Positions 1 to 59,210 of a stretch of 64,000 nt of DNA are shown piece by piece (the first letter of the stretch is position 1; every line of letters starts with the position of its first letter). Source of the DNA: Mobula hypostoma (lineage: Eukaryota); the NCBI RefSeq assembly GCF_963921235.1, contig NC_086097.1:73348001-73412000 (forward strand). The letters are read 5' to 3'. Below the pieces are notes generated by a model. It was not told the DNA's origin, made no database searches, and saw only the letters and a program-made list of their open reading frames with translations. The translations under genes and the position numbers were made by a program.

Positions 1-2420
1 TATCAATGAGGCATAGGAAGAGTTGCGGAGCAATGCCAGTGTAGGCTTGGAACATGGACTGTTCCACATAGCAAACAAAAAGGCAAACATAGCTGGGACC
101 CACACGAATGCCCATGGCTGCTCCTTTGGTTTGAAGGAAGTGGGAGGAGCTGAAGGAGTAATTATTGAGAGTGAGGACCAGTTCTGCCAACGGAAGAGAG
201 TGGTGGTGAAGGGGAACTGGTTGGATCTGCTGTCCAGAAAGAAGCAGAGAGCTTTAAGGCCCTCATGATGGGCGATGGAAGTGTATAGGGACTGGACGTA
301 GCATGTTTGTGTTACATGTGAAGTGTGGCTTCAACAGGAAGGACTGTTTAGGGCCCTGAATGAAGGTGAGGGAGGATGTGAATGGGCAGGTGTAACACTC
401 CTCCCACTTGCAAGAATAAATGCCAGGAGGGAGATTAGTGGGAAGGGATGAATGGGCAAGAGAATCACAGAGGCTGCTATTCCTGTGGAAGACAGAGAAT
501 TGGGGGAGGAGGTAGTAAAGATGTGTTTGGTGTAGGGTCCCCTTGAAGATGGCGGATATTGCAGAGGATGATGTGTTGGAAGAGAATCATAGGGTAGTAG
601 ATGAAGAACAGAGGAACTCTGTCCTTATTAAGGCAGCAGGAAGATGGGCTGAGGATAGATGTCAAGGAAATGGAGGAGATACAGGTGAGGACAGCATCAA
701 TGGTGGAGAAAGGGAAACTTTGTTCTTTGAAAAAGGAAGACATCAGAGATGGCCTGGATAGGAAAGCCTCAACCTAGGAACAGATGCGGCAGAGACAAAG
801 GAACTGTGAAAAGGTAATGGCACTTTTATAGGAGACAGGTTGGAAAAGGTATAGTCAAGACCATAAGACGTAGGAGCAGAATTAGGCCATTCAGCCCATT
901 CTGAATGGCTCTACCATTTCATCATGGCTGATCCCAGATTACACTCAACCCCATACACCTGCCTTCTTGCCATATCCTTTGATACCATGACCAATCAGGA
1001 AACGATGGACCTCCGCCGTAAATATAGGCACGGACTTGGCATCCACTGCAGTCTGTGGCAGAGTATTCCACAGAGTTGCTACTCTCTGACTAAAAATGTT
1101 CCTCCTTACCTCTGTTCTAAAAGGTCGACCCTCATCTTTGAGGCTGTGCCCTCTAATTCTGGATATCCTCACCATAGGAAATATCCTCTCCACATCCACC
1201 CTGTCTAGACGTTTCAACATTCGGTAGGTTTCAATGAGATCCTCCCGCATTCTTCTAAATTCCAATGAGTACAGGCCCAAAGCTGCCAAGTGCTCCTCAT
1301 GTGTTAATCCATTCATTCTCAGAATGAGGACATGAGTCAACGTTCACTGGGGCAGGAGCAGGCAGAAACAGTCGGCATAACTGAACAGTTAAGCTAGTGG
1401 ATATTGGCTAGGAGGTAGAAATGAGCACTGAGGGGTAAATGAACTGTGAGATTGGTGTCTGTGGTTAGGAGATCACCAGAATGGATGAAGTTGGTGATGG
1501 TTTCGGAGACAAATTTCTGACGTTCCTGAGTGTGGTCCTTTACAAAGGGTAAGTAACAGGAGGTGTCTAGAGTTTCTGTCTGGCTTCAGCAAAGTAGAGG
1601 TCAGTCCACCACACTATAACAGCACCCCTTTTTTCTGTGGCTTTCATGGTGAGGTTGTGATTGGTGCCGAGAGAGTGGATGGAAGTGAGTTCAAAAGGGA
1701 TAATGCTTGAAGAGGAAAGAGGAGTGCTGAAGTCGAGCCAGTTGATGTCTGCAATTAGGGATGAAAAGATTTAGAGCAGGCAGAGAACCAGAGAGGAGTG
1801 TTCATGAGGAAGAGGAAGGTTAGAGACAGGAGAAAGAGGTCATCGGTGTGGGGTGGTGAATTCTTGCCAAAGAAGTGGGCTCGGAGATAGAAGTAAAGTT
1901 TGACGCTGTGATGGGCGCAGAACCCACTGAGGTGCGGGCGAAGGGGGACAAAGATAAGGCCCTTGCCAAGGACAGAACATTCCACCTCAGAGAAGGGAAG
2001 GTTGGGGGGAATGATGAAAAACGTTGCAGGGATCAGAGGGAGGAAATAAGTTAGTGGTGTCAGAAGATGGGAGAGTGGGAAAGTATGGTGGGAGGAAAAT
2101 AAAGACTGAGGACTCGGGAGGTGGGGGGGATCCTGAGAAACCCGGGGTTGGGGGAGTAGTGATGGAGGAAGGGGAGCCCAGGGGCTCAGTGGCATTGGGG
2201 AAGGTCACAGCCTGGAGGTGAGGGTGGCCAAGTTCGGGGCTGGAGATAGAGCTGGAACTCATGTAATTTGCTGTCTAAAGGCATACTGGAACCTGAGTTG
2301 GAGATGGTGGGATACTCAGTCTGGAGATATCCGGGGTTGTTGTAGTTTGGGGTTCCTGCAGTCTGGAGGAGTCCAGCACTGTTGCAACCTGAGTTACACA
2401 GTCTGGAGGCATCTGATCAA
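1..2420 (-). mobile_element. Degraded, internally rearranged Penelope-like retroelement (N-terminal region, RT, thumb, start of GIY-YIG), interrupted by a CR1 tail at 862-1335
   Basis: Minus-strand translation gives VQSLYTSIAHHEGLKALCFFLD (RT motif A region, ~298-230), MSSFFKEQSFPFSTI...DRVPL...QHIILCNIRHLQGDPT (477-743) and ECSVLGKGLIFVPLRPHLS (1755-2195), homologous to the younger copy at 27158-29237. Confidence 0.85.
862..1335 (-). mobile_element. CR1-clade LINE 3' fragment
   Basis: ORF 945-1340 LGLYSLEFRRMREDLIETYRMLKRLDRVD...RGHSL...FSQRV is a CR1 ORF2 C-terminus, followed by a typical 3' tail. Confidence 0.9.
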
Positions 2421-5400
2421 ATCAAAGTCCAAAATAATGGTTACTCCGGATCCGATGCAGCACCAAAAAAAAACACGAAAGACAAAGAACACAATAATAA
2501 GAAATCTCAATAAATGTAAATACATAATATAGCTTATATACATAGGTTGATTGTAAGTCCATAAAGTGACATTAGGCTGTATATAAGGTGACTGACAGGA
2601 AATAATAAAGTGGTGGTGGAGTTAATGGATATAGATGTTGATCAGCCTTACTGTTTAGGTAAAGTAACTGTTTTTGAGTCTGTTCGTCCTTGCATTGACG
2701 CTATTTGGCCTCCTCCCTGTTGGGAATGGGACAACCAGTCCATGAGCATGGTGGGTAGGATTCTTCATGATGTTACTGGCCCTTTTCCAGCACTTTTCTG
2801 TATATATGTTCTTGGTGGTAGGAGGGCTGGTGCTGGTCATGCATTGGGCAGTTTTGATTACTCATTGTAGAGCCTTCCTGTTCGTTGCAGTGCGGTTTTT
2901 GTACCAAGCAGCGATGCAGCTTGTTAGGATGCTCTCTGCTACACATCTGTAGATTGACATGAGTATTGATGAGTATGGGTGGAGCTGAGAAACAGGAAAG
3001 GTATGGCCACATTAGTGGGATTGTATTACAGACCACCCAATAGTCAACGAGACTTGGAAGAGCAAATCTGCAGAGAGATAGCAGGCAACTGCAGGAAACA
3101 TAAAGTTGTGGTGGTAGGGGATTTTAGTCTTCCATACATTGATTGGAACTCCCATACTGTTAGGGGTCTAGATGGTTTAGAGTTTGTAAAATGTGTTCAG
3201 GAAAGTTTTCTAAATCAGTATATAGAGGGACCAACTAGAGGGGATGCAATATTGGATCTCCTGTTAGGAAACGAATTAGGGCAAGTGACAGAAGTCTGTG
3301 TAGGGGAGCACTTTGGTTCCAGTGATCATAACACCATTAGTTTCAATTTGATCATGGACAAGGATAGATCTGGTCCTAGGGTTGAGGTTCTGAACTGGAA
3401 GAAGGCCAAATTTGAAGAAATGAGAAAGGATCTAAAAAGCATGGATTGGGACAGGTTGTTCTCTGGCAAAGATGTGATTGGTAGGTGGGAAGCATTCAAA
3501 GGGGAAATTTTGAGAGTGCAGAGTTTGTATGTTCCTGTCAGGATTAAAGACAAATTGAATAGGAATAAGGAACCTTGGTTCTCAAGGGATATTGCAACTC
3601 TGATAAAGAAGAAGAGGGAGTTGTATGAAATGTATAGGAAACAGGGGGTAAATCAGGTGCTTGAGGAGTATAAGAAGTGCAAGAAAATACTTAAGGAAGA
3701 AATCAGGAGGGCAAAATGAAGACATGAGGTTGCCTTGGCAGTCAAAGTGAAGGATAATCCAAAGAGCTTTTACAAGTATATTAAGAGCAAAAGGATTGTA
3801 AGGGATAAAATTGGTCCTCTTGAAGATCAGAGTGGTCGGCTTTGTGCGGAACCAAAGGAAATGGGGGAGATCTTAAATAGGTTTTTTGCGTCTGTATTTA
3901 CTAAGGAAGCTGGCATGAAATCTATGGAATTGAGGGAATCAAGTAGTGAGACCATGGAAACTGTACAGATTGAAAAGGAGGAGGCACTTGCTGTCTTGAG
4001 GAAAATTAAAGTGGATAAATCCCCGGGACCTGACAGAGTGTTCCCTCGGACCTTGAAAGAGACTAGTGTTGAAATTGCGGGGACCCTGGCAGAAATATTT
4101 AAAATGTCGCTGTCTATGGGTGAAGTGCCGGAGGATTGGAGAGTGGCTCATGTTGTTCCATTGTTTAAAAAAGGATGGAAAAGTAATCCGGGAAATTATA
4201 GGCCGGTGAGTTTAACGTCAGTAGTAGGTAAGTTATTGGAGGGAGTACTAAGAGACAGAATCTACAAGCATTTGGATAGACAGGGGCTTATTAGGGAGAG
4301 TCAACATGGCTTTGTGCGTGGTAGGTCATGTTTGACCAATCTGTTGGAGTTTTTCGAGGAGGTTACCAGGAAAGTGGATGAAGGGAAGGCAGTGGATATT
4401 GTCTACGTGGACTTCAGTAAGGCCTTTGACAAGGTCCCGCATGGGAGGTTAGTTAGGAAAATTCAGTCGCTAGGTATATATGGAGAGGTGGTAAATTGGA
4501 TTAGACATTGGCTCGATGGAAGAAGCCAGAGAGTGGTGGTAGAGAATTGCTTCTCTGAGTGGAGGCCTGTGACCAGTGGTGTGCCACAGGGATCAATGCT
4601 GGGTCCATTGTTATTTGTCATCTATATCAATGATCTGTATGATAATGTGGTAAATTGGATCAGCAAGTTTGCTGATGATACAAAGATTGGAGGTGTAGTA
4701 GACAGTGAGGAAGGTTTTCAGAGCCTGCAGAGGGACTTAGACCAGCTGGAAAAATGGTCTGAAAAATGGCAGATGGAGTTTAATACTGACAAGTGTGAGG
4801 TATTGCACGTTGGAAGGACAAACCAGCGTAGAACATACAGTGTTAATGGTAAGGCACTGAGGAGTGCAGTGGAACAGAGGGATCTGGGAATACAGATACA
4901 AAATTCCCTAAAAGTGTCGTCACAGGTAGATAGGGTCGTAAAGAGAGCTTTTGGTACATTGGCCTTTATTAATCTAAGTATTGAGTATAAGAGCTGGAAT
5001 GTTATGATGAGGTTGTATAAGGCATTGGTGAGGCCGAATCTGGAGTATTGTGTTCAGTTTTGGTCACTAAATTACAGGAAGGATATAAATAAGGTTGAAA
5101 GAGTGCAGAGAAGGTTTACAAGGATGTTGCCGGAACTTGAGAAACTCAATTACAGAGAAAGGTTGAATAGGTTAGGACTTTATTCCCTGGAGCGTAGAAG
5201 AATGAGGGGAGATTTGATAGAGGTATATAAAATTATGATGGGTATAGATAGAGTGAATGCAAGCAGGCTTTTTCCACTGAGGCAAGGAGAGAGAAAAACC
5301 AGAGGACATGGGTTAAGGGTGAGGGGGGAAAAGTTTAAAGGGAACATTAGGGGGGTTTCTTCACACAGAGAGTAGTGGGAGTGTGGAATGAGCTGCCAGA

Positions 5401-6790
5401 CGAAGTGGTAAATGCGGGTTCTTTTTTAACATTTAAGAATAAATTGGACAGATACATGGATGGGAGGTGTATGGAGGGATATGGTCCATGTGCAGGTCAG
5501 TGGGACTAGGCAGAAAATGGTTCGGCACAGCCAAGAAGGGCCAAAGGGCCTGTTTATGTGCTGTAGTTTCTATGGTTTCTATGTGCAAAATCCAGCTCTC
5601 TTCAGCCTCCTCAGAAAGCAGAGGCATTGATGGGCTTTATTGATGGTGCAGGTTGTGTTCTAGGACCGTAAGAGATTATTTATGATGTGCACTCCCAGGA
5701 GTTTGAAACTGCTTGCAGTTACCACTGTGGTGTTGCTGATGTAAAGAGGGGTGTGAGTAGTACGAGTTGGTAACTATCTCCTTTGTCTTGTTGATATTAA
5801 GGAAGAGGTATTTGCCCGGCACCAGTCCTCAAGTTCTTCCACCTCCTCTCTGCAGGCTGTCTCATTGTTGGTGATGAACCCCACCGCTGTTGTGTCATCA
5901 GTAAACAACAATGTGATTTCTCAGGTGTTTAGCGGTGCAGTCGTGTGTGGGCAGAGTATACAGCAATGTGCTCAGCACACAGCTCTGGAGGGCATCAATG
6001 TTGAGGATGATGGGAAGGGACTAGCAGTTGTACATCATGTCTATCTGAGGTCTTTTCATTAGGAAGTCCAACACCCAATTGCACAGTGGTGTATTTAGAC
6101 TGAGAAGGAGTTTGTCCACCAAGGAGTGTGGGACAATAGTGCTGAATGTCAAACTGAAGTCCAGAAACAACATTCTGACATAAGTGTCATTGTTTTCTTG
6201 GCATGACAGGGCCAGGTGCATGACTGATGCTATGGCATCTGTCGTAGAGTAGTTCTGTCAGGAAGTATATTGGTGAGTGTTCAATATGACATGAATGGAG
6301 TTTTTGATATGTGCCATTATCAGCTCTTCAAAGCACTTCATGATGATTGGTGTCAGTGCCCTGGGTGGTAGTCGTTTAGTTCAGAAGGTGTGGAGTTCTT
6401 CCATACTGGGGTGATAGTGGCTGGTTTGAAACAGCTGACTACAGCACCCTAAATGAGTGAAGTGTTGAAGATGTCAGTAAGCTGGTGAACACCCTCCCCG
6501 GGTACTCGGCCTGGAATGTTGTCTGGCCCCGCCGCCTTTTGGGTGTTTACTCTCTGCAGAGCCCTTCTCATGTCTTCTGTTGTTTCACGAGGAAGTGGGG
6601 GGGGGGGGGTACCTTTCGTGGCCGGCATTGTGTTGCTTGCCTTGAAGCACGCGTAAAACTTGCTTAGAGCATCAGGAAGGGTGGTGAACTTGTACAGTCG
6701 ATGTTGTTTTCTCTCGCATAGTCAGTAATGCCCTTGATACCTAGCCACGTATCTGGTGATCGTTATCGGACAGGTGTTCCTGAAGTTTTT
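2420..6790 (-). mobile_element. Rex1/Babar-type LINE (degraded RT and 3' end), split by the CR1 insertion at 2974-5583
   Basis: KRASNIMKNPTHHAHGLVVPFPTGRR...RTNRLKNSY (2655-2840) and [19 protein letters not shown]...[14 protein letters not shown] (6021-6221); sequence resumes colinearly after 5583. Confidence 0.85.
2974..5583 (+). mobile_element. Young 5'-truncated CR1 (HER1-like) LINE; ORF2 with partial APE endonuclease and RT; one in-frame stop (3717-3719) and a frameshift near 5355
   Basis: ORFs 2979-3719 and 3735-5375 share a frame; motifs GDF, SDH, NYRPVSLTS, DFSKAFDKVPH, GVPQGS, KFADD; 3' tail GTTTCTATGGTTTCTATG. Confidence 0.97.
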
Positions 6791-13929: not shown

Positions 13930-14680
13930 TAGAAGAGAAGACGCTGGGATAGACTTCAAGCTGGATTATAGCAGTGGGGCATGTGACTACCTCTCCTTAG
14001 CACAATGCAGTTTAATGTACAGTCACTGGAGAACATGATACAGGACCCAAGGACAAGATTACTGTATCAGTCGGAAATGAGGGTTTGCTGTCTACTGTGT
14101 TCACTGAGACATGGCTCACCCCCGATACTCCGGACATGGCACTTCATCCAATAGATGAACTGAACTGCAGAATCAGGAAATGGGAGGGGTGCTGGGTGGA
14201 CTTCATGATAACTGCTTTGTGGTGTTCCAGCATACAAATCTTGGCTCACTCTTGTTCTCCCGATCTTGAACCTCAAATGATTAGGTTCTGACTGTTCTAC
14301 TTAGCAAGAGAGTTCTCCACTGTGATCCTGACCACATTTTACATAGAATACTGCCAAAGGCAGATGTCAAACAAGCACTCAATGTATTGAGTGCCATCAT
14401 TAACGTGTGATTCATTTTAAGGGAATGGTAGTGTTAAATGCTGTGCTGTAATCAATGAAGAGTATCTTGATGTATGCATCTTCATTGTCCATAAGTTCCA
14501 GAGCTGAGTGAAGAGCCAATGAAGTGGCATCTGCTGTAACAGTAAGCAAATTGAAGTGGATCCAAGTTATTCCTGAGGCAGGAGCAGTTATGCTTCATGG
14601 CGAACCTCTCAAAGTACTTCATCACAGTGGATGTGAGTGCTACTGGATGATGGTCATTGAAGCAGGTTACCACGTTCTTC
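13930..14680. mobile_element. Rex1/Babar remnant with internal inversion (+ strand endonuclease to ~14403, then - strand RT)
   Basis: +: VFTETWLTPDTPD, SCSPDLE; -: CFNDHHPVALTSTVMKYFERF...LDPLQFAY. Confidence 0.8.
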
Positions 14681-14877
14681 TTGAAAATTGTACAGAGGGA
14701 AGAGATTGCTGCACCTTTGGTCATGATCTTTGTATCCTCAGTAGCCACAAGAGTGCCAGAAGATTGGAAGGTGGCAATGTTATTCCTTTGTTTTACAAAG
14801 ATAATAGGGATAATCCTGGGAATTATGGAACAGTGACCCTTGCATCAGTGGTGAGGAAGCTATTGGAGATGATTCTT

Positions 14878-17800
14878 ACATCAGACCCAGGCAATGAACA
14901 AACGACGATGAGGAAGCAGTGTGCATGTGGCAAAATCTGCAAGAACGATCATGGCTTGAAGATCCACCAAGCGAGGATGAAGTGTTTGGCGGGAGCAGGA
15001 GCAGCACAATGCACAGGTGTCCAACCTGGTGAGCCGAAGGAGGGGCCTGGCCTGGAGTCACCCCATAGTGCCCGGAACCTCCAAGTGTTGCAAACTAATC
15101 CCTCAAACATGAAGTCTAACAGGAGGCGGATCAAATGGCCTGCAGCTAACATGACTTCACTGTGGAAGCAGATGGATGAAGATGTTAACCAAATTCTGGA
15201 GGCAATGGTGAAGGGAGGGGTTGATAGGAAGCTGCAAGCCACGACAACAATTATTGTTAGTATCACAGCTGAACGGTTCAGAGAAGAGGAGAAGGAAGGC
15301 TCCAAAACATCCTACTCAAAGAACCAAAGAGCATTGAGGATCCACAACATCGGGCAGGAGATGAAAGCGCTGAAGTCCCAATACAAGGAGGCAGGAGAAG
15401 AGGAGCGCATTGGCTTGGGCCAGCTGATGTGCATACTACGAAAGAAGATCAGGGTCCTCCGCCGAACAGAGTGACATCAGAGGCGGCGGCGTGAAAGGGC
15501 TCAAAAACGTGTTGCCTTTATCGCCAACACCTTCAAGTTCACCAAGGAGTTGCTGGGGGAGAAGCGCAGTGGGAAACTGGCCTGTTCGCAGGAAGACATA
15601 GACCAACATCTGAAGAAGATATATAATGATCCTGAAAGAGAGCAGGAGTTGGGAGAGTGCGACATCCTAATAGACCCACCCGAACCAGATGTGCAGTTCG
15701 ACATGTCAGAGCTGCAACTAAAGGAAGTCAGAGAGGTCGTCCGCAAAGCAAGGGCAAGCTCGGCTCCAGGACCAAGCAACACCTCGTACAAAGTGTACAA
15801 GAACTGCCCCAAACTCCTGCTGCGTCTGTGGAAGATCCTGAGAATCTTCTGGAGAAGGGGGAAAATCCCAGAACAGTGGAGGGTGGCTGAAGGGGTGTGG
15901 ATCCCGAAGGGGGAAAATGCCACCCAGATAGATCAGTTTCGCATCATCTCCCTGCTGTGTGTCGAGGCGAAGATCTTCTTCAGTGCAGTTTCTAAGCGGC
16001 TGTGCACCTACCTAGCAAAGAACACCTATATTAATACATCAGTCCAGAAGGGTGGCATTTCAGGGATGTCAGCTGTCTGGAGCACATCAGTGTGGCGACA
16101 CAGCTCATCAGGGAGGCCAGAGAGAACAAGGGCAACTTGTCAGTGTTGTGGCTCGACCTGGCAAATGCATATGGCTCCATTCCGCACAAGCTGGTGCAGC
16201 TCACACTGACCAAATATCACGTCCGCAGCAGAATCAGAGACCTTATCGCTGATTATTACAGCAACTTCATGATGAGGATCTCTTCAGGAGCAATTACATC
16301 AACCTGGCACAAGGTGGAGATCGGCATCATCACAGGGTGCACTATCTCAGTGACACTGTTCTCCCTAGCCATGAACATGCTCACTAAGTCTGCTGAACGA
16401 GAGTGCGGAGGGCCCAGAATGAATTCCGCTCAACGGCAACCACCTATCAGGGCATTCATGGATGACCTCACAGTCACCACAGAATCAGTCCCAGGCTGCT
16501 ATAGGATTCTGCAAGGGCTCGAAAAGCTGGTGGAGTGGGTCCGCATGCGTTTCAAACCTGCCAAATCAAGATCGATGACGCTGAGGAAAGGGAAGGTGGA
16601 GAACAAGTTCCGGTTCAGCATCGCAGGCACAGCCATCCCAACCATCACAGAAAAGCCAGTCAAGAGCTTAGGCAAAGTTTTTGACAGCTCTTTAAGGGAC
16701 ACAACATCCATTCAGGCAACCTGCACCAAGTTGGATGGCTAGCTGAAATCTGTGGACAAGTCTGGCCTACCTGCGAAGTTTAAAGCCTGGGTGTATCAGC
16801 ATGGCATTCTTCCCAGAATCCTGTGGCCCCTCCTCGTCTATGCAGTTCCGATCTCGACAGTCGAAACCTTAGAGAGGAGGGTTAGCAACCACCTCAGGAG
16901 ATGGCTGGGGCTGCCAAAGAGCCTGAGCAGCATCGCACTCTATGGACACCACAACAAACTGCAACTGCCCTTCAAATCCTTGGAGGAAGAATTCAAGGTA
17001 ACAAGAGCCAGAGAAGTGCTACAGTATAGGGACTCAAGTGACCCGAAGGTGGCTAGGGCAGGGATCCAAGTAACTACTGGCAGGAAGTGGAGGGCAGAGG
17101 AAGCTGTTCAGGAGGCAGAGGCGAGGCTGTGTCACAGGAGGCTGGTGGGAGTGGTCACACGAGGCCGAGCTGGGCTAGGCTCCTTTCCAACTCCCCAAAT
17201 GGACACCAGAGGAAAGGAAAGGCATTGTCTAGTTCAGGAGGAGGTGAGAGCAATAGTGGAGGAGATGAGAGCCTGCAAGGTGGTGGGAATGAAGCAAAAG
17301 GGAGCTTGGACAAGATGGGAGAATGCGGTTGAGAGGAAAGTGACCTGGGCTGATCTTTGGAAAGCCAAACCACACCGCATCCAATTTCTCATCCAGGCAG
17401 TGTACGATGTGCTTCCAAGCCCATCAAACCTGCACACATGGGGCAAGGCAGAGTCATCTGCGTGCCCACTGTGCTCCAAGCGCGGAACCCTGGAGCACAT
17501 CCTCAGCGGCTGTGCAAGGGCACTTGGTGAGGGACGGTACGGGTGGAGGCATGATCAGATCCTGAAGACCATCGCTGAAGCCGTCAGCGCAGGAGTTGAG
17601 TGGGCGAAGTGGTCCCGACCCTCCAAGCAGACCATTGCCTTTGTCAGAGCTGGGGAGCAGCCAATACCTGCCAAACGAACATCTGCAGGCATTCTAACCT
17701 CTGCAAGGGACTGGCAGCTGTTGGTGGGACCTTGAAGGGCAGCTGAAGTTCCCCAACCATATCGCAGCCACCACCCTGCGACCAGACTGAGTCTGAGTCT

Positions 17801-20199: not shown

Positions 20200-20553
20200 G
20201 TGTACCATGAGAGACAGGAAATAAGGAGGGGCACCAGGTGGAATGATAGTCAGGTAAGGAGAAGAGGTAAGAGGCCAGAGAGGAAAGTAGAAGAAGAAGA
20301 AGTGAAGTAAAGAAAAAAACTACCAGATGGAGAAATTGATGTTCATGCCATCGGGTTGGAGGTTACCTGGATGGAATATGAAGTGATGCTCCTCCAGCCT
20401 GAGAGTGGCAGAAGAGAAGGCCTTGGATTGACATGTCGTAATGGGAATGAGGATCAGAATTCAAGTGGTTGGCCACCGGGAAGTTCTGCTTTTGGCGGAT
20501 GGAGCGGAGGTGCTTGTCAAGGTGTTCCCCCAATTTATGTTCGGTCTCACCAC
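20200..20553 (-). mobile_element. Penelope GIY-YIG C-terminal fragment plus 3'UTR
   Basis: GETEHKLGEHLDKHLRSIRQKQNFPVANHLNSDPHSHYDMSIQGLL. Confidence 0.85.
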
Positions 20554-22088
20554 TATTATTATTTTGTTTTTGTTTTACCTGGAGCGAATAGAAGAACCTT
20601 GACACAGTTTACTTTGCTGTGTTGCAATCATTCTGTGTCTCTTGTGCATTTTCTTCCCCAATTCCTAAGCTTTTTATTACATTTCCCAGACTTACTCCCT
20701 CATGCATTTGTGGTCCTCTTTTTGTCCTTCTACCTGCTTTTGACTTTGGTGTTCATTCTTTCCCTTGGCTTTTATTCTTTCCCTCAGCGAGACTCCTCTT
20801 TATCCGCCCTATGAGTACCAGATGAATTCTTTTCCCTGAATGCGTGTGTGCTTCTCTTTATTTGTATCCGATGGGTCCTTTTTCAATTAATTTCTGATTT
20901 ACCTCCTGTGACTCTTACATTGTACTCTATCTCACTTTCGTATGTCATTTTCTGATTTCCTTGTGCTTCCTTCAATAGTTCTGCAAGACTTGTTCCTTTG
21001 CCATGTAAAGAAGTGCTAAAAGATTTTTTCCAGGAAATATAAAAACCCCCATGAGCATTGGAATTCAGTAAAGGTGACACAAAGGGATAACAGAACTTCA
21101 TGGTTCACATTATTTTCAGTGGAAGTAATGTTTTTAATTTACAAGCTAGTAATTACATTTTGATGGTAGTTTGTTATTGATTTCAAGAGCTTAGGAATTG
21201 TTTTAGAATTGAAGTGTCACATTGATGAGGTGGAAGGTGCAGTCTTGCTGAGATTCACAGTAAGTTGCATTGCAGGTTGATCGTACTTGCAAGGAGGGAG
21301 TGCTGCGTTCAGAAAGGTAGTTGCTGTGCCTGACCTAATGTACTTTGTTGAATGTTGCTGAACACAGCAAGCAAGTGGTTCATTAGCTAGCATCGTTGTC
21401 ACCAGTGATAATGAGGACACATGGTACATTACAAATCCTAACCTGTAATTAGTGAATACCAAGATCAGCATTGCCAGTCTCTCTGAGATGTTGTTTTCAT
21501 TGTGAGAATTGCTTGTCGGCAGCAAATGAATGGTCTGAGCTGCAGGGCGTTTATCAGAACCAGTATCAAGGACAAACATCACAGAAGAATATGTGAATAT
21601 AAGAAATAAAAGTACTTGGAACTGTGAGAGATACAAGCCTTGTTGTGTACCTGCTTCCTTGTTCTGCCTGGGTAAGGAGGTGGAAGTATTTGCCATCACC
21701 ATCTGTTTGCCCAATTTCCCATCAATTTCGCAAAATAAATTAACCAGTGGGCATTTTTAATTCTCTAAACCATAATAATCAGTATTGCAATTCATTTTGT
21801 GAGGCAACACAAGATCACTGTAGTGTTATCTGATCCAGTTAATTCTCCAACAAATTTTATCCTTGTGTTGAAATTAGATACTATTACGTTCTTAATACTG
21901 CAACTAAAATAATTTGGAAGTAATTTTACTCCTGCAAATAGAATGATTTGTTCTATGTGTCAGAATCTAAATTGCACCAGAAGTTACTGATTTTGAGTAT
22001 GGAGTTATAGATTACTGAAACTACTTTAATCCTTTGGACAGCTAGGATTGAAACTCCAGTGAAGCATTTAATCCTAGTTTTGCAAGTA

Positions 22089-22241: not shown

Positions 22242-22597
22242 TACTAATTTTTCTTGTATGAAACTTGTTATGTTGTCTGTTTTTCCAGAGGTTATGAACA
22301 AATTTATTGAGAAGGAATAAGTTGAATGCAAATAAGTGGAATTTCAAAGGAACTATATCTAAAGTAACAGGGTGTGGAAAACCAACTTCGTTGGAAATTT
22401 GCTATATGCTATACAGTAGTATGTCTTATTTAGTTATCACATCATTGAAATCAAGTAATTTATTTTAATATTAATTTATGAGTCAATTATTTGCAAATAG
22501 ATGAAGGTTTACTGAACAATTTTGGTGATGAAAACATTTCAAATAGCTAATTTTTTGTCATTCTTTCAAAATCGCAAAGCATTTTGATGTTATTATT

Positions 22598-22756
22598 CAG
22601 CTAGTCCTTCCTTCAGTTAGTCCTGACGAAGGGTCTCGGCCTGAAACGTCGACTGCACCTCTTCCTACAGATGCTGCTTGGCCTGCTGCGTTCACCAGCA
22701 ACTTTGATGTATGTTGCTTGAATTTCCAGCATCTGCAGAATTCCTGTTGTTTGTTG
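22598..22756 (+). mobile_element. Solo Penelope pseudo-LTR/3'-end unit carrying a hammerhead motif, with 14-bp TSD
   Basis: Near-identical to 29093-29237; flanked by exact ttgatgttattatt at 22584-22597 and 22757-22770. Confidence 0.9.
22618..22655 (+). ncRNA. Minimal type-I hammerhead ribozyme motif
   Basis: Stem I tagtc(22618-22)/gactg(22651-55); core CTGACGA 22623-29; stem II agg..cct 22630-42; GAAA 22643-46; loopless palindromic stem III ACGT; predicted GUC cleavage after 22650. Confidence 0.8.
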
Positions 22757-22884
22757 TTGATGTTATTATTGTTTATAACAAATGCTATATTATGTAAATG
22801 TGCATGTAGGGCAAGTTAGCCAATATGTACTGTCTTTTGGGCTAATTTTCACTCCCTATAGTTGCTGATTTAATGAGAGGCCAT

Positions 22885-23912
22885 TTATCCACAAGGGTCA
22901 GTGTTGGGACCATTTCTTTTTATGCTCTAAGTCAATGATTTAGATGATGAAATAGATGAATTTTTTTGCCAAGTTTGCAGATGATATGAAGATTGGTAGA
23001 AGGGCAGGTGTGTTGAGGAAACAGGTAGCCTGCAGAAGGACTTGGATTAGGAGAACGGGCAAGAAAGTGGCAAATAAATTACACTGTTGGAAAATGCATG
23101 ATCATGCACTTTGGTAGTGGAAATAAATGTGAAGACTATTTTCTAAATGGGGAGAAATTCCAAAAATCTGAGATGCAAAGGGACTTGGGAGTTCTTGTGC
23201 AGAGCACCCTAGAGGTTAACTTTCAGGTTGAGTTGGTGTTGAGGAAGGCAAATACAACATTAGCATTCATTTCAAGGGGTCTAGAATATAAGAGCGGGAG
23301 ATGTGGTGCTGAGTCTTTGTAAGGCACTGGTAAGGCCCTCACCTTGAGTATTGTAAACAGTTCTGGGATTCTCATCTAAGAAAAGATGTGCTGCCATTGG
23401 AGAGGGTTCAGAGGAGGTTCACAAGGATGATTCTGGGAATGAAAGGGTTATCATATGAGAAACGTTTGACAGCTCTGGGTCTGTACTCACGGAATTTAGA
23501 AGGATAAGGGGAGGATCTCATTGAAACCTTTCGAATGTTGAAAGGCCTAGACAGAGTAGATGTGAAAAGGATGTCTCCCATGGTGGGGGAGTCTAAGACA
23601 AGAGGGCATAGCCTCAGGATAGAGGGTCATCTATTTAAAACAGAGATGTGGAGAAATATCTTTAGCCAAAGTGTGGTGGATTTGTGGAATTTATTACCAC
23701 AGGCAGCTATGGAGGCTAGGTCATTGGGTGTATTTAAGGCAGAGATTGATAGGTTCTTGATTGCACATGGCATCAAAGGTTATGGGGAGAAGGCAGGTGA
23801 GTGGGGCTGAGGAGGTGGAGAAAAAGGATCAGCCATAATTGAATGGCGGAACAGATTCGATGGGCCAAATAGTCTAATTCTACTCCTATGTCTTCGGGTC
23901 TTATGTTCTTAT
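22885..23912 (+). mobile_element. CR1 LINE 3' fragment (degraded RT C-half and tail)
   Basis: KFADD-like ccaagtttgcagatgat, QRDLGVLV, MLKGLDRVD...TRGHSLRI; same subfamily as 862-1335. Confidence 0.9.
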
Positions 23913-25182: not shown

Positions 25183-25285
25183 ATCCTGCTGAAGGGTCTC
25201 AGCCCAAAACGTTGACTGTACTTTTTTTTTCCATAGATGCTGCCTGGCCTGCTGAGTTCCTCCAGCATTTTGTGTGTGTTGCTTG
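25183..25285 (+). mobile_element. Degenerate solo Penelope pLTR unit (mutated hammerhead core)
   Basis: tcctgctgaagggtctcagcccaaaacgttgactg...gatgctgcctggcctgctgagttcctccagcattttgtgtgtgttgc. Confidence 0.75.
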
Positions 25286-25784
25286 AAATATTTAATCCTG
25301 TTTTGCTGCTGGGTTCTGTGTGACCTTGACAAGGTAGCATGTATTTCCTGCTTTCAGGTCTTTTGAAAAGGTTTAGTGAGCTGGATTTTGGAGCCCACGT
25401 GGTTGGGATGACAGATTAGAAGGAGAACCAGGTTTCGTAATGTTTTTTCTTTTAGTCTTTTTGGGAGATGTGATTGAGCATAGAGATGCTCCAAAAGTAC
25501 TGATTTTAATTTGTTGCAACTCATGTCACAAATATTGATACTGCATCTGGAGATAGGGCATAAAACTGCAGTGTCCTTGATGTCATCTTGCCTAGAAGTA
25601 TTTTGCAACTTAGCCAGAAAATATTTCATCCTGTTACTGATTTGAGCCTGTAGCATTCTGAAGAGGTTTTGATGGGGTTAAGTAAGCTGCACATGACAGT
25701 TCTGTAGTCCAGATCCTGTAGTTGTTGATGTGTTACATTATAATACAATGATAGACATTGTTTAATCTTTTTGCAAATAAAGTC

Positions 25785-26225: not shown

Positions 26226-27212
26226 TGATTGAATTCTATCAAAATATTTAAGGTATCAGAAGTTTCAGGCACCAGGACAAGATTCATTTATAACACCAGC
26301 TATAATACTATATGTAGAATTTTAAGATCACAACAGCATGTCATGCTGGGCACTGTGGCCTGAGAAACCTTGGATAGAAATAGTTTTGCTATAATTTGAG
26401 TAAGAGTGAAAATCACACAGGCACTCACTTTCAGCTTCCACATTTGGAATTTGCTATCCATAATGAGTAGTGAAGGAGCTGAGAAAGTTCATAAAAGGTT
26501 GGTGTGGGCCAGCACTAAATGTGGGAAAAGTCATCAAGCAGTGAGGTCTGGCACCTAAGTCCATGAGGTATCACCTCCTACTGTAATCTTGACCAAGCGC
26601 AGAGTCCACTAATGCCCTCAGCTCAGAGCCCTCATGCACTTTGATCCATCAACTCAACTTTATGCTGACCACTATTTGGCAGAATTTATCATTTTTTTTT
26701 AGTATTTGACCTTTTTTGTAAGTGCCTGCTAATTATTAGAGATATTTGAATACTTCAAAGACCTTCACAATATCAAGCTGTTGAAAGGCCAGTAAGGATG
26801 TGCTAAGGGTGGGAACATAGGATACCCCCCATCCATGTTTTGGTAGCTAGTCATGACCTTCTGTAGCTTATGGACTACAGCAGCAAGCCAGATATCCAGC
26901 TTGAACAGGGCGGGAGAAGTAAGTGCAGCCACTGATGGTGGGCTCCATTGAGTAAAGTTAGACAAACTGCATTCAGTTTTGACATTTCAGCTTCAGCCTT
27001 ATCAATTGTCCTTTCAACTGGCTTTCAAAACTTTTAGATAAAATATAAATGGCAGTGTTCAGTCCGTAATCTGACAAAATAATCATAATACAGAATACAA
27101 TAAATAAATTAAAAATTTAAAAAAAGACTAAATACAGGTCATAGACCAACGTATCTTCAATAAAAGTTGCTGGTGAACACAGCAGGCCAGGCAGCATCTC
27201 TAGGAAGAGGTG

Positions 27213-27250
27213 CAGTCGACGTTTCAGGCCGAGACCCTTCGTCAGGACTA
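27213..27250 (-). ncRNA. Minimal type-I hammerhead ribozyme motif (left arm)
   Basis: Reverse complement reads tagtc CTGACGA agggtctcggcct GAAA cgtc gactg. Confidence 0.8.
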
Positions 27251-29102
27251 ACTGAAGGAAGAGTGAGTCAGGGATATGAAAGTTGGAGGGGGAGGGGGAG
27301 ATCCAAAATGATAGGAGAAGACAGGAGGGGGAGGGATGGAGCCAAGAGCTGGACAGGTGATAGGCAAAAGGGATACGAGAGGATCATGGGACAGGAGGTC
27401 CGGGAAAAAAGACAAGGGGGTGGGGGGAACCCAAAGGATGTGCAAAGGGTATATTCAGAGGGACAGAGGGAGAAAAAGGACAGAGAGTGAGAGAAAGAAT
27501 GTGTGTATAAAAATAAGTAACAGATGGGGTACGAGGGGGAGGTGGGGCATTAGCGGAAGTTAGAGAAGTCGATGTTCATGCCATCAGGTTGGAGGCTACC
27601 CAGACGGAATATAAGGTGTTGTTCCTCCAACCTGAGTGTGGCTTCATCTTTACAGTAGAGGAGGCCGTGGATAGACATGTCAGAATGGGAATGGGATGTG
27701 GAATTAAAATGTGTGGCCACTGGGAGATCCTGCTTTCTCTGGCGGACAGAGCGTAGGTGTCCAGCAAAGCGGTCTCCCAGTCTGCGTCGGGTCTTGCCAA
27801 TATATAAAAGGCCACAGCGGGAGCACCGGACGCAGTATATCACCCCAGCCGACTCACAGGTGAAGTGTTGCCTCACCTGGAAGGACTGTTTGGGGCCCTG
27901 AATGGTGGTAAGGGCATGTGTAGCACTTGTTCCGCTTACACGGATAAGTGCCAGGAGGGAGATCAGTGGGGAGGGATGGGGGGGACGAATGGATAAGGGA
28001 GTTGCGTAGGGAGCGATCCCTGCGGAATGCAGAGAGAGGGGGGGAGGGAAAGATGTGCTTAGTGGTGGGATCCCCTTGGAGGCGGCGGAAGTTACGGAGA
28101 ATAATATGTTGGACCCGGAGGCTGGTGGGGTGGTAGTTGAGGACCAGGGGAACCCTATTCCTAGTGGGGTGGCGGGAGGATGGAGTGAGAGCAGATGTAC
28201 GTGAAATGGGGGAGATGCGTTTAAGAGCAGAGTTGATAGTGGAGGAAGGGAAGCCCCCTTCTTTAAAAAAGGAAGACATCTCCCTCGTCCTAGAACGAAA
28301 AGCCTCATCCTGAGAGCAGATGCGACAGAGACGGAGGACCCCTTCTCCCGTCTTCAACCCTCCTCCTCTTCATGGACATCCCGCTCTGGTCTTCTGCCTG
28401 CTCTGGATCTCTTACCTTCAACTGTCGGAGGCAGAGTGCTCTGTCCTCAGTAAGGGCCTCACCTTTGTCCCCCTTCGCCCACACCTCAGCGAGTTCCGTG
28501 TTCGCCATGATGCGGAACTTTTCTTCCGCCGTCTCCGTCTTCAAGCCTACTTCTCCGGCAAGGACTCTTCCACCCCCACCGATGACCCCTTCTCCTGTCT
28601 TCAACCCTCCTCCTCTTCATGGACACCCCGCTCTGGTCTTCTGCCTGCTCTGGATCTCTTCATCCCATTCCCATTCTGACATGTCTATCCACGGTCTCCT
28701 CTACTGTAGAGATGAAGCCACACTCAGGTTGGAGGAAGAACACCTTATATTCCTTCTGGGTAGCCTCCAACCTGATGGCATGAACATCGACTTCTCTAAC
28801 TTCCGCTAATGCCCCATCTCCCCCTCGTACCCCATCTGTTACTTATTTTTATACACACATTCTTTCTCTCACTCTCCTTTCTCTCCCTCTGTCCCTCTGA
28901 ATATACCCCTTGCTCATCCTCTGGGTTCCCCCCCCCCTTGTCTTTCTTCTCGGACCTCCTGTCCCATGATCCTCTCGTATCCCTTTTGCCTATCACCTGT
29001 CCAGCTCTTGGCTCCATCCCTCCCCTTCCTGTCTTCTCCTATCATTTTGGATCTCCCCCTCCCCCTCCAACTTTCATATCCCTTACTCACTCTTCCTTCA
29101 GT

Positions 29103-29140
29103 TAGTCCTGACGAAGGGTCTCGGCCTGAAACGTCGACTG
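29103..29140 (+). ncRNA. Minimal type-I hammerhead ribozyme motif (right arm)
   Basis: tagtc CTGACGA(29108-14) agggtctcggcct GAAA(29128-31) cgtc gactg. Confidence 0.8.
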
Positions 29141-29449
29141 CACCTCTTCCTAGAGATGCTGCCTGGCCTGCTGCATTCACCAGCAACTTTTATGTGTGTT
29201 GCTTGAATTTCCAGCATCTGCAGAATTCCTGTTGTTTGACCAATGTATCTTTCTTTGTTTACTGTGATTATCTGGACACAGGACAAAGCAACATAGAAGT
29301 ACAGAAGGAAACGGTCAAAGCCAATAGAAATATAAAACAGCATTTTAAAAACATTATTGAAATTGGTACTCTTTAAAGTGTCATATACACACCAAAATAC
29401 TTCTGAACTGTAATCGTTATTCTAATTAATGAAATATAACATTTCGGAT

Positions 29450-35049: not shown

Positions 35050-35980
35050 GGAGTTTGAGTCCAGGTCAAAGCGTGGTTGAATGTCAGCAATCCCAGAAGT
35101 CATGTCGGCAGGCACTAACGAGACCAGCATTTCCCAGGTCGGAGATCGGACCTGGGTTGGAGGTCAATACAGCAAGTCCCAAATCCCAGATATGGGCAGG
35201 AGTCACGAGGTTATGTTCCCACCCCTGGTCACTGGGGTCAGAGGTCTCTGTGAGTCTGGAAGTCAAGGCCTGAAGGTCAAACTGGCAAAGTCCAAAGGGC
35301 AAAGCTATATCCAGAGCATCACAAGTCTGGAGGTAGGAGCCTAAATGTTAAAGACTGAAGGTAGAGGTCTGAAGGAGCTCAGGTCACCAGGGTCAAAGAC
35401 CTGTGGCGTCCGGAGGCCGAAGCCTGAAGGTCAAACCAGTGATCAGTGAGTCCTGGGTGAAGTCCAAAGTTGGAGGCCCGATATCTGCAAGTCTGAGACT
35501 CTGGGAACAAAGACTGGATACCCAGACACGGCCTGTCATGGGACTGAATACCCAGACACGGCCTGTAATGGGATTGGATACCCAGATACGGCCTGTCATG
35601 GGACTGGAGACTCAGACATGTCCTTTCATGGGACCAGAGACCCAGACACAGCCTGTCATGTGACTGGAGACCCAGATACGGCCTGTCATGGGACTGGAGA
35701 CCCAGACACAGCCTGTCATGTGACTAGAGGTCTGTATGTGTGTGTTGGGGGGGTGTCGTTGGGAGGGTTGGGAAAAGGGGGTCACTTTGCTGTTGTTGTT
35801 TTGTTTTATGATTGCTGTTGCTGCTTGTATTGTCCTCTTGAACATTTTTGGCTTGAAACGTTGGTGCCAGAATGTATGGCAACAGTTGTGGGTTGCCCCT
35901 AGTGCATCCTTGGGTGTGCTGGTTAACACATTTCCCTGTACATTTCAATGTACATGTGATAAGTAAATCTGAATCTGAAA
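35050..35980 (+). mobile_element. Unclassified non-autonomous retroposon with low-complexity body, internal minisatellite and (TCTGAA)n tail
   Basis: Ends gtacatgtgataagtaaatctgaatctgaa; related to the minus-strand copy at ~62275-62550. Confidence 0.55.
35511..35728. repeat. 30-bp minisatellite, ~7.3 copies (consensus ggactggagacccagacacggcctgtcatg)
   Basis: Units start at 35511, 35541, 35571, 35601, 35631, 35661, 35691 and (partial) 35721, with no spacers. Confidence 0.97.
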
Positions 35981-36966
35981 TGGGCTGTTGTTGATTCCAT
36001 TCCCAAACACGTCATGGAAGTAATGGGCTAGATTGTCCAGTTGATGTCTGCTGTACTAGTTATCGACAAATTTCAGCTGTAACCAAGCCAACTGCCATTC
36101 TTTGAGCTTGCTGAGTACTTGGGTTTGACAGGGCATTCAAAGGCAGTCTGGGATGGGAAAGGGAAAGTCTTATAACCAGTCAAGCTGGCCATTAATGAAA
36201 TTGTTTAATAGTTGATTAACGTGGAAACCATTGATGATATTTCTCAGCCATGTTATTTACACAAAACAAAGGTCACAATGAGAAATGCCACTTGTGCTTC
36301 TACAAAATGGCAATGCAAGTGTAATTTAAAACATAATTATTTTAAATTATTAAGGCTTTCATTTAGTTACTTACCTGTGCCTTGCAGGCTCATATTTTAG
36401 TCAAACAGTTTTATGGGTCATCTGAACCAAATTCAGATTTCCAAACACCTCAACAGTGTCAAAAATAGAGCTGAAAGTACTCAGGTGCTGAGGCAGCATT
36501 TGTGGGAAGAGGAACCGTTAATATTGCCTTTTAAAGACACTTCATCAGAACCTGTCACGTGGCCTTCCTCTCTCATGTCTCCCCCTCCTGTTCCCATCAC
36601 TCCGGGTGCACTGAATGCTGGGATTGACCTGTCAAGCTCAGTCATACACTCAGCACTTCTGATATACATCAAGCAGTGCAGATTTTTGTTGTGTAAGTGG
36701 CAAGGCAATTATTTGGCACATTACTTCCATAATGCAGCAGCCTGATACAGAGACCCTGAGAGAGATCTGGGCTCTCTCAGCAAAGCCTTTTGGCATTCAG
36801 GCATCCAGTTCTGCAGAAAAAAATTCTTAGCAGAGGTAGATTGCTGAATGACAGGAGTCCACCTGCTGACTTAAAGGCTGGGAGAATTCTTCCTGCCAGT
36901 GGCACAGGGTAGGGCTGGCATAAGAAGGTGGACAGTTTGAAAATGGTTTTCTGAGCAATCACCACC

Positions 36967-39382
36967 TCTGCAAGTTCTTCTATGCCGGTCTGTATGATGA
37001 AAAGGCCACAGAATCCACAGCCTCCCGCAACTTCCTGTCGTCTATCACGCAGGTCTTAGACGACGGCAAGCGGGAGAGTCTGGATCAGCCACTGACCCTG
37101 GACGAGCTGACAGGCTCCATCCGTTCCTTTGGGTCGGGTAAGACTCCCAGAAGCGATGGCTTACCGGCTGAGTTGTACTCGGCTCTGTGGAACTGGATGG
37201 GCCCAGACCTGCTGGAAGTGTACAATGCTATGCTTCTGGCCGGCAGTATGTCTGAGTCCATGAGGAAGGGCATGATCACCCTCATCTACAAGCAGAAGGG
37301 GGAAAGGGAGGACATTAGAAATTGGAGACCCATCTCTCTCCTGAATGTGGATTACAAGGTCCTGTCCAAGGCTATCACCAACAGGGTCAAGTCTGCTCTG
37401 GGACAGGTGATCCACCCGGACCAAACCTGTGCTGTACCGGGCAGGAAGATCTCAGACAGCCTCGCGCTGCTGAGGGACACCATCGCCTACGTGCAGGACA
37501 GGGGGGTGGACGCCTGCCTGGTCAGCTTGGACCAAGAGAAAGCCTTCGACAGGATATCGCACACGTACATGGCGGACGTGCTCTCCAAAATGGGATTTGG
37601 GGAGGGAATCCGGAATTGGATTAGACTGCTCTACACAGACATCTGTAGTGCAGTGCAGGTCAACGGGTGGGAAACAGACAGCTTCCCCATCAGGTCTGGA
37701 GTCAGGCAGGGCTGTCCCCTCTCCCCTGTCTTGTTTGTCTGCTGCATAGAACCCTTTGCGGAAGCCATCAGGAGGGATGAGGGCATAAGAGGGGTGACGC
37801 TGCCAGGCAGTGGAGGGACCCAAGTGAAAACCTCCCTGTACATGGACGACGTCACCGTCTTCTGCTCTGATCTGAGGTCAGTTCGCAGGTTGATTGGCAC
37901 CTGCGAACAGTTCGAGCTAGCATCGGGGGCCAGGGTCAACTGCACGAAGAGCGAAGCCATGCTCTTCGGCAACTGGCCCGACCGATCCAGCGTCCCCTTC
38001 ACCATCAGGTCTGACCACGTGAAGATGTTGGGGATCTGGTTCGGAGGGGCCGAGGCGTGCAACAAGAACTGGCAGGAGCGGACTGCCAAGGTGAAACAGA
38101 AACTGGGACTGTGGGGAGGGCGCTCCCTGTCGATAACGGGCAAGAACCTGGTCATCAGGTGTGAGGTGCTCTCAGGGCTGCTGTACTTGGCACAGGTCTG
38201 GCCCATCCCCGGCTCCTACAGCTCGGAAATCACCCGGGCTGTCTTCAGATTCGTCTGGGGATCCAAGATGGAGCGGGTGAGACGGACCGTCATGCACAAG
38301 TCCCTGGACAACAGGGGCAAGAACGTCCCCAATGTCGCCCTCACCCTGATGGCCAGCTTCGTATGTGGCTGCATCAGGTTGTGTGTAGAACCCAGGTACG
38401 TGGGCACCAAGTACCACTATGTGCCCAGGTTCTACCTGTCGCCCTGGCTACGAAGGATGGGTCTGGCCCCACTCCCGCGCAACGCCCCAGTCAGCTGGTC
38501 GTTGCCGGCATACCTGTCCTATGTAGCAAAGTTCTTCCAGGAGAACGCCTTTGACCACAGGGCCATCAGGCAGTGGTCGGCACATAGTGTCCTGCAGGCA
38601 CTGCAGGAGAAGGACATGATGGACACAGTGGGGTGGTTCCCTGAGCAGACTGTCCAGTTCATCTGGCAAAATGCCTCATCGCCAGATCTCACCAACAGGC
38701 ACCAAGACCTCGCCTGGCTGGCAGTGAGAGGGCCCTCCCAGTCACAGCCCTCCTGTACGCCCGGAACGTCGTCTCCACACCCCACTGCCCACGGGAGGAC
38801 TGCAGTGAGGAGGAGTCTGTGACCCACCTCTTTGCACACTGCCAGTTCGCAAAGAGGGTGTGGAGGAGGATTGACGGGCTAGTGTCACGTTTTATCCCTA
38901 GCAGCTGCGCAACAGAGGACTCTCTGATCTACGGGCTGTTCCCGGGGACGCACACGGAGACCAACATCCGGTGCTGCTGGCAGATCATCAACTCGGTGAA
39001 AGACGCTCTTTGGTCGGCCCGAAACTTGATGATCCACCAGCACATGGAGATGTCCGTGGGAGAATGCTGCCGACTGGCACATTCTCGGCTGCAGGAGTAC
39101 ATGCTGAGGGACGCACTGAACTCGGTGCAGCCACCGCAAGGGCCCGGTGGAGAAGGACCACAGTATAGGTTTCTCCACCCATGGGAGTGGGAGGGGTCGG
39201 TGGGCAGGGAGTATACCCCTCAACAATGATGTGATAAGATGAACTACTGGAGTGCCACATGGGTGGTTATAAATATGGATATGTACTGAGTATAATGGAA
39301 ACGTATGTAAAGGATGAAGAGTTATTGAATGGTTTATTGTATATATTTATTTTTGAATAAAGTATATTTTGAAATTTAAAAA
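36967..39382 (+). mobile_element. Tx1/L1-clade LINE, 5'-truncated; ORF2 RT and CCHC, one frameshift ~38730; 10-bp TSD
   Basis: NWRPISLLNVDYK, SLDQEKAFDRISH, GVRQGCPLSP, YMDD; CPREDCSEEESVTHLFAHC; AATAAA and A-tail; TSD aatcaccacc 36957-66 / 39383-92. Confidence 0.95.
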
Positions 39383-40302: not shown

Positions 40303-40410
40303 AGTACCAGTCCTGATGAAGGATATTGGTTCGAAACATTGACTCTTTATTCCTCTCTACAGATGTTGCCTGACACGCTCAGTTCCTCCAGTATTTTGTT
40401 TGTGTTGCCA
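40303..40410 (+). mobile_element. Degenerate solo Penelope pLTR unit with hammerhead core retained
   Basis: cagtc CTGATGA(40313-19) aggatattggttc GAAA(40333-36) catt gactc. Confidence 0.7.
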
Positions 40411-59131: not shown

Positions 59132-59210
59132 ACAACAGGAATTCTGCAGATGCTGGAAATTCAAGCAACACACAACAAAGTTGCTGGTGAACGCAGCAGG
59201 CCAGGCAGCA
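59132..59210 (-). mobile_element. Short 3'-terminal piece of the young Penelope pLTR (no hammerhead core)
   Basis: aacaggaattctgcagatgctggaaattcaagcaac...gttgctggtgaacgcagcaggccaggcagca is the reverse complement of 29157-29233. Confidence 0.8.

Follow-up and report, generated by a model that had tools for sequence, protein, structure and literature searches.

A solo pseudo-LTR with an intact minimal hammerhead motif from a young Penelope-like element of Mobula hypostoma, and related short arrays as candidate newborn retrozymes

Introduction

Penelope-like elements (PLEs) carry minimal type-I hammerheads in their pseudo-LTRs (pLTRs), and these are abundant as single motifs that correspond to truncated PLEs (PMC4209133). 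Solo pLTRs that include the first codons of the element have been reported, as has a rotifer pLTR running into the open reading frame (ORF; PMC3846280), and a pLTR intron of D. virilis ends at helix I (PMC4209133; PMC2377424). For the PAc element, reverse transcriptase (RT) initiates internally at two sites and needs downstream ORF RNA, hammerhead cleavage being unnecessary in vitro (PMC11167929). Non-LTR retrozymes form tandem arrays that are believed to move in circular form by means of PLE enzymes (PMC7229834); a pLTR origin has been proposed for them, and growth of their arrays by unequal crossover has been suggested (Li et al. 2026, bioRxiv 10.64898/2026.07.22.740005). In addition, a CX2-5CxxC linker serves as a criterion for the Neptune clade (PMC8557442).

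Here, a 64,000-nt stretch of M. hypostoma contig NC_086097.1 (hereafter the window) was analysed around a short hammerhead-bearing insert, for which the original prediction had proposed an independently inserted retrozyme- or SINE-like unit. Taken alone, the insert is unremarkable, since PLE ends of this sort number in the tens of thousands; more can be learned from the family, and above all from its arrays.

Materials and methods

Copy ends were tabulated from the first 100 exact matches to a 3' anchor on one contig (C1, first 6.8 Mb), 30 of which came with only 1.5 kb of upstream sequence. Positions within the element are given as d, the number of nucleotides upstream of 22749. A similarity search biased towards whole-query matches was left out of the length statistics, and one locus (L057) with a local duplication was counted as 50 nt in length scoring and as 144 nt with a target site duplication (TSD) on separate examination. 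Genome-wide 5'-end patterns required three mismatched (non-element) bases upstream. The pLTR-to-ORF junction pattern gave 388 genome matches, and 69 loci (68 distinct) were examined.

Results

Identity and boundaries of the insert

The features of the insert, its neighbours and the related loci are listed in Table 1. The exact 14-bp TSD of the original prediction was confirmed, its 14-mer occurring only twice in the 64-kb window with a chance of about 4e-8 per placement. The two copies bound an insert of 159 bases (22598-22756), as had been described. Apart from its first 9 nt and last 3 nt it consists of PLE sequence, the part collinear with the PLE beginning at 22607; the nine extra bases probably reflect a brief jump of the RT when it reached the end of its template, and other solo copies carry at most 15 extra bases at their 5' ends. 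The collinear part was 97% identical to window positions 29092-29238, 99% identical to one long copy, and 97-98% identical to both pLTRs of a full-length tandem copy (L370). The insert is the PLE's own pLTR, i.e. its 3' end, and the same sequence stands upstream of the ORF in tandem copies. The view of the insert as free-standing non-coding DNA does not hold, as in tandem copies the 3' end of the pLTR continues directly and in frame into the PLE ORF. As the ATG at 22711 was present in only 17 of 51 copies, the tail may represent either the first codons or else the end of the 5' UTR. The 3' ends of copies point to RT start zones in this region near 22704-22729 and 22750-22756.

Table 1. Coordinates of the insert, its parts and related copies. 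Positions refer to the window, except for loci elsewhere in the genome, which are given by locus name.
Feature	Position	Strand	Detail or basis
5' TSD copy, 14 bp	22584..22597	+	identical to 22757-22770
Extra bases, 9 nt	22598..22606	+	8/9 identical to 22614-22622
Solo pLTR of a young Neptune-type PLE (3' terminus = 5' leader)	22607..22753	+	identity to PLE copies
Pyrimidine tract and two AG (22615-16, 22619-20), predicted 3' splice acceptor	22607..22620	+	sequence
Minimal type-I hammerhead, intact	22618..22655	+	stem I 22618-22622/22651-22655 (5 bp); cleavage site after C22650
Hammerhead core CUGACGA	22623-22629	+	GAAA box at 22643-22646
Hammerhead stem II, 4 bp	22631-34/22639-42	+	unpaired A22630 (A9a) ahead of stem II
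Loopless palindromic stem III ACGU	22646-22649	+	sequence
3' tail region, in phase with the start of the PLE ORF	22711..22753	+	copy comparison, 3' ends
3' TSD copy, 14 bp	22757..22770	+	identical to 22584-22597
Inverted, 5'-truncated arm of a separate same-family copy	27160..28338	-	C-terminal portion of the RT, Zn linker, GIY-YIG and a tailless pLTR
Direct arm of the 27160-29238 copy	28331..29238	+	fragments of the N-terminal ORF fused to the final 580 nt, which include hammerhead and tail
79-nt copy of the same PLE 3' end, without hammerhead	59132..59210	-	similarity
Full-length tandem copy	L358 (G000:C2:157228500-157238400)		same PLE family as focal unit
310-nt-unit array	L359 (G000:C2:157813000-157820000)		4 identical junctions and partial 5' unit
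310-nt-unit array	L375 (G000:C50:58410983-58414005)		2 junctions and 17-nt partial 5' unit
Further arrays	L301, L303, L304, L307, L310-L313, L316, L322, L327, L329		a different junction in each
Further arrays	L339, L340, L342, L350, L356, L367		a different junction in each

The full-length tandem copy L370 has a 3,515-nt monomer with an uninterrupted 1043-codon frame, and the family may therefore still be active. The frame possessed DKG and YxDD RT motifs (YIDD at 689), a CX2-5CxxC linker and, at its C-terminus, a GIY-YIG domain; Pfam matches on a sister copy (RVT_1 and GIY-YIG) were both below the curated cut-offs, and a PDB search with the 1043-residue frame returned no match. The parent is preferably assigned to the Neptune type rather than to Nematis, since only Neptune and Poseidon are reported from vertebrates in bioRxiv 10.64898/2026.07.22.740005. 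Exact genome-wide matches numbered 23,285 for a hammerhead 49-mer and 36,207 for a 3' 27-mer, and the family is young and very abundant.

Over 143 nt, the focal copy differed at 1-10 positions from short copies (n = 14) and at 0-11 from long ones (n = 37). Its termini and TSD likewise resembled the ones seen in long copies. Features of a pLTR were present (optional tail of 30-40 nt, inverted upstream copies, TSD), and those of a SINE-like family were absent, neither fixed ends of its own nor diagnostic sequence apart from the autonomous partner being found. No Pol III head derived from tRNA, 7SL or 5S was detected, the insert being almost wholly PLE sequence with no Rfam match. The focal unit is single, and tandem arrays as defined for retrozymes were present at other loci (e.g. 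L359, L375 and L311). Head-to-tail junctions giving units of 150-170 nt were found at four loci genome-wide (L081-L084), two of which (on C12 and C58) shared an identical matched junction.

Other elements in the window

The separate copy of the same family at 27160-29238 has a head-to-head layout and is bounded by a 14-bp TSD of its own in which one base is mismatched (27144-27157 and 29238-29251). It retained only residues 311-404 and 778-1043 of 1043, without the YIDD core at 689. Because the RT core is absent, this copy was not the source of the enzyme, a role that the original prediction had given to the RT/GIY-YIG sequence at 27158-29237.

PLE ends of greater age that also bear a hammerhead and share 70-80% identity with the focal unit were present at 25184-25287 (+), 44412-44557 (-), 50703-50827 (+) and 40354-40409 (+), and older related PLE fragments at 15-856, 1342-2176 (-) and 20330-20556 (-), with 40-80% amino-acid identity to the young frame. 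Two copies on the forward strand (2973-5578 and 51525-54542) were 93-98% identical to each other and had long open frames of 551 and 489 codons; we take them to resemble a young LINE, of which many older fragments would also be present (e.g. 22960-23890). The window further contained clustered long open frames (235-632 codons) with higher GC at 14512-17735 and 36924-39229 (+), and a minisatellite at 35482-35751 with a 30-nt period and about nine units.

Structure and conservation of the hammerhead

A type-I hammerhead descriptor found three motifs in the window (22617+, 29102+ and 27251-), whereas 60 approximate dinucleotide shuffles gave 0.017 per 64 kb on average. The focal motif possessed the CUGANGA and GAAA boxes, a UH cleavage site, stems I and II and a palindromic stem III, and the predicted type-I hammerhead with a loopless stem III was thereby borne out. 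Stem II was likewise present, its better fit being an unpaired A22630 followed by 4 bp, as in the published minimal-hammerhead consensus; this adenine was retained in 50 of 51 older relatives. In contrast to the descriptor, an Rfam search of the insert gave no hammerhead at the gathering threshold or at E<=10, the weak matches being due to chance, and the missing stem III presumably explains this.

The 159-mer was about as stable as its shuffles (z = -0.54). Based on nearest-neighbour energies, which ignore tertiary contacts and help from proteins, the 38-nt hammerhead would prefer an inactive fold (-11.0 kcal/mol) to the active one (-7.0 kcal/mol), and for a double hammerhead the predicted values were -11.5 versus -30.3, with the active form not favoured. 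The predicted inactive preference supports the earlier expectation that a monomer should fold poorly and not cleave.

Concerning conservation, the hammerhead parts were 70-88% identical in 51 diverged relatives, compared with 29% upstream and 53% just downstream, figures to be read with the caveat that these relatives were selected to overlap the motif. In 51 young copies, by contrast, the core was no better conserved than the flanks (divergence of 2.2-2.5% compared to 1.1% upstream), as expected of dead copies.

Distribution of copy ends

The 100 anchored copies ranged from 37 nt to more than 2,470 nt and comprised 58 with an inverted arm, 23 solo copies with a TSD of at least 9 bp, 15 solo copies without a called TSD, and 4 others. 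TSDs of the 23 other solo copies measured 10-17 bp and were 66% A+T. The 5' ends of 39 of the 100 copies lay at d120-160. Among copies still at risk, 24 of 79 ended at d120-133, 15 of 55 at d134-160 and 4 of 40 at d161-250, and the stop rate per nucleotide was 0.022 at d120-133, 0.010 at d134-160 and about 0.001 at d161-1000. Inverted arms behaved similarly, with 28 of 50 ending at d118-157. Genome-wide, 5' ends numbered 2,320 at d130 (G22620), 465 at d143 (the position of the focal copy) and 612 at the cleavage site (d99), these three counts being given without anchor totals of their own, and 28 at d195, where the anchor occurs 45,523 times.

When 30 loci were inspected per position, solo copies with a TSD of at least 9 bp numbered 12 at d130, 5 at d143 and none at d99, and inverted copies 12, 17 and 19, respectively; inverted-copy junctions at d99-146 were steered by microhomology, stem I included. 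The 5'-end peak thus lies at the AG on the 5' edge of hammerhead stem I and not at the cleavage site, with the focal copy on its shoulder, in the zone (22607-22620) where 5' ends accumulate. Within the main peak lies the G belonging to the second AG, which is not the first exon base, and solo 5' ends were spread over d78-175. Hammerhead cleavage as the origin of the 5' ends was rejected, as none of the 30 loci at d99 was a solo copy with a TSD. The 3' ends fell into two zones 30-45 nt apart, and 46 of 50 inverted arms began at d21-46. Overall, the 5' ends of short solo copies were non-random and smooth random truncation was not found; insertion of the unit on its own by retrotransposition, and its dependence on a PLE RT/GIY-YIG enzyme, were both supported.

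A candidate 126-nt GT...AG intron was recognised in the pLTR by motif alone, and copies spliced at it were absent from 289 genomic hammerhead contexts. The contigs listed from RNA runs, which cannot show starts and whose RNA status is not on record, had no GT-AG joint and none crossed the 310-nt junction described below, a result that speaks neither for nor against splicing or a circle. Conservation of the YAG does not prove splicing, because the YAG is also part of stem I. We give about even chances to the 5' pile-up arising from RNA 5' ends made around splicing of the pLTR intron; the same accumulation might instead mark a transcription start, which seems rather unlikely, or a roadblock to the RT, which is doubtful.

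Short arrays and the 310-nt unit

Among the 68 distinct pLTR-to-ORF loci, the ORF continued for at least 500 nt in 44 (four of which started at d131-152) and stopped early without re-entry in 5. The other 19 were arrays, in which the pLTR and the ORF up to +71 to +309 are followed by the pLTR again. Their 3' termini were in or close to one of the RT start zones in most cases, and an exact TSD of 12-14 bp surrounded the whole array at five loci (L307, L311, L322, L342 and L359). Every junction was different among the 19 arrays. Re-entry points clustered at d131-147 (8 of 19), matching the predicted acceptor and branch region, and at d253-259 (4 of 19), matching the predicted donor of the 126-nt intron. 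Since ORF sequence 3' of the RT start is found upstream, the RT moved on from the template's 5' terminus to its 3' terminus, and short RNA templates, as read from these sequences, exist. The shortest array template extended to ORF +71, and all recovered short templates carried at least 60 nt past the RT start. The related mini-arrays had units of about 200-450 nt and at least two hammerheads, and those made of pLTR and ORF start (L301 to L367) are candidate newborn retrozymes. For L322, two units were identical and the third different, so that later duplication is the likelier origin at this locus.

At L359, the repeated junction connects ORF +178, where a GT stands, with the first AG of the predicted acceptor (22615-16), and L375 was the only other locus with it. 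The two loci are on different contigs, their flanks differ, and the arrays show four differences, two of them at subfamily-variable sites. Both are likely rolling-circle copies of a back-spliced circular RNA, which would fit repeated passes that end away from the junction. Imperfect microhomology is an alternative for this junction, which is the one GT-AG junction among the 19 arrays and carries such microhomology; the GT-AG reading alone is not beyond chance, and the recurrence of the junction at two unlinked loci is the stronger point for a circle. As a general source of arrays, back-splicing was rejected, with one of 19 junctions reading GT-AG. A contig from one RNA run (L209:714-1226, run X4; depth 276) joined ORF +247 to the pLTR in a 513-nt unit with no splice signals, its RNA status being a guess from that single run.

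Discussion

Origin of the focal unit

The focal unit is a solo pLTR that was quite probably inserted by the element's own RT and endonuclease from a short RNA, with its hammerhead uncut, and it is a predicted dead end. The PLE protein would bind the RNA across the pLTR-ORF junction and its GIY-YIG domain would nick an A+T-rich target, after which the RT would start internally on the RNA, at either of two sites separated by about 30-45 nt; a nick and an internal start are suggested by the A+T-rich TSDs of 10-17 bp and by the in vitro work on PAc. The cDNA would then run off or stop 120-160 nt upstream, where the pile-up is seen, possibly owing to the predicted 3' splice site adjoining stem I, and a 9-nt jump may have completed the focal copy. 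For the focal copy alone, a short 5'-end RNA and an early stop on a long RNA are both possible and cannot be told apart. The solo unit is predicted neither to re-mobilise nor to cleave, as it lacks at least 60 nt past the RT start and a partner hammerhead. If the RT instead crossed from the 5' end of the RNA to its 3' end, or circled, a mini-array with at least two hammerheads would result, which would keep both the region downstream of the RT start and a partner ribozyme.

More tentatively, and at somewhat less than an even chance, the family may catch the birth of retrozymes in the act, with splicing-defined short pLTR-ORF RNAs as the main templates and jumps or circles giving arrays. Run-off on short templates would produce the thousands of solo units, and multi-hammerhead arrays would come from end-to-end jumps, or from a back-spliced hammerhead circle of 310 nt copied in rolling-circle fashion; arrays with the RT-binding region could cleave in cis, circularise and spread. 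If so, retrozymes would arise in a single retrotransposition step, and cDNA ends at the 5' splice site, the branch region and the 3' splice site would link intron retention in PLEs to the copying of unspliced or intermediate RNA.

The original prediction had the unit belong to an independent, non-autonomous retrozyme or SINE family of about 160 nt, self-cleaving as dimers and spread by PLE proteins, and we now regard this as improbable. Such a family would account for short solo copies that occur in the thousands, bear TSDs and favour certain 5' ends, and for the conservation of the hammerhead between related families, and animal retrozymes have been proposed to derive from pLTRs (bioRxiv 10.64898/2026.07.22.740005). 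However, the short solo copies cannot be separated in sequence from long copies, their 5' ends range over d78-175 with two 3'-end classes, and tandem junctions of unit size number four in the genome; the cleavage site lies inside the unit, uncut, with 0 of 30 solo copies with a TSD starting there, and the core of young copies diverges by 2.2-2.5% compared to 1.1% upstream.

Chance truncation at the 5' side when a full-length PLE mRNA is copied from its 3' pLTR, the length then being accidental, would explain the length continuum from 37 nt to full length and the 79-nt copy without hammerhead in the same window. It is disfavoured as a full account and, at that, highly improbable: the stop rate was 10-20 times higher at d120-160 than upstream, genome counts rose from 28 at d195 to 465 at d143 and 2,320 at d130, and the arrays show that short templates exist. 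That the solo pLTR is the remnant of a full-length insertion whose two direct pLTRs recombined, a process that would retain a TSD and has been suggested for rotifer solo pLTRs (PMC3846280), is scarcely credible here, as the upstream pLTR starts at d131-152 in 4 of 44 long loci, compared with 13 of 33 solo copies of at least 130 nt starting at d130-146, and the 388 pLTR-to-ORF matches are far fewer than the short solo copies.

Because the PLE family is both young and huge, past reverse transcription by PLEs can be read from its copies, which bears on PLE templates, hammerhead use, intron retention and the link to retrozymes. The family also yields exact predictions, namely RNA ends at the stem I boundary, scarce solo copies at the cleavage site, a lower limit to template length and a 310-nt circle. 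In the literature covered, which included few subscription journals and neither supplements nor Repbase, splice-site-aligned copy ends or arrays from one RT event were not found described.

Comparison with known systems

One close likeness is to the pLTR hammerheads of PLEs (Cervera and de la Pena 2014, PMC4209133; Arkhipova et al. 2013, PMC3846280). They share with the focal unit a minimal motif on the sense strand, an extra base before stem II, a palindromic stem III and a short stem I. Also shared are the prevalence of single motifs, a pLTR that runs into the first codons, a 30-40-nt tail and head-to-head inverted copies. The focal subfamily differs in that 10.1-11.1 is G.U in place of G-C, with C found in 29 of 51 older relatives, and the passages covered of both papers do not describe a sharp 5'-end pile-up at the stem I boundary.

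PAc (Poseidon) of Anolis (Frangieh et al. 2024, PMC11167929) is alike in its two tail-defining RT start zones, its A+T-rich targets, a template that reaches some 60 nt beyond the start, and a hammerhead at the pLTR-ORF junction that does not define the ends of copies. In the focal family, in contrast, the protein is of the Neptune type with a Zn linker and the hammerhead sits upstream of where the ORF starts rather than within the ORF; the evidence for the focal family is genomic, whereas that for PAc is biochemical.

Metazoan non-LTR retrozymes (Cervera and de la Pena 2020, PMC7229834; Li et al. 2026) likewise have a type-I hammerhead, a PLE-derived origin and a large TSD. The related mini-arrays fit the tandem definition, whereas the focal unit is a monomer, and the retrozyme hammerheads of PMC7229834 are canonical, compared with the minimal one of the focal unit. 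Compared with the unequal crossover suggested in Li et al. 2026, the 5'-partial units and the TSDs around whole arrays found here point to birth during reverse transcription.
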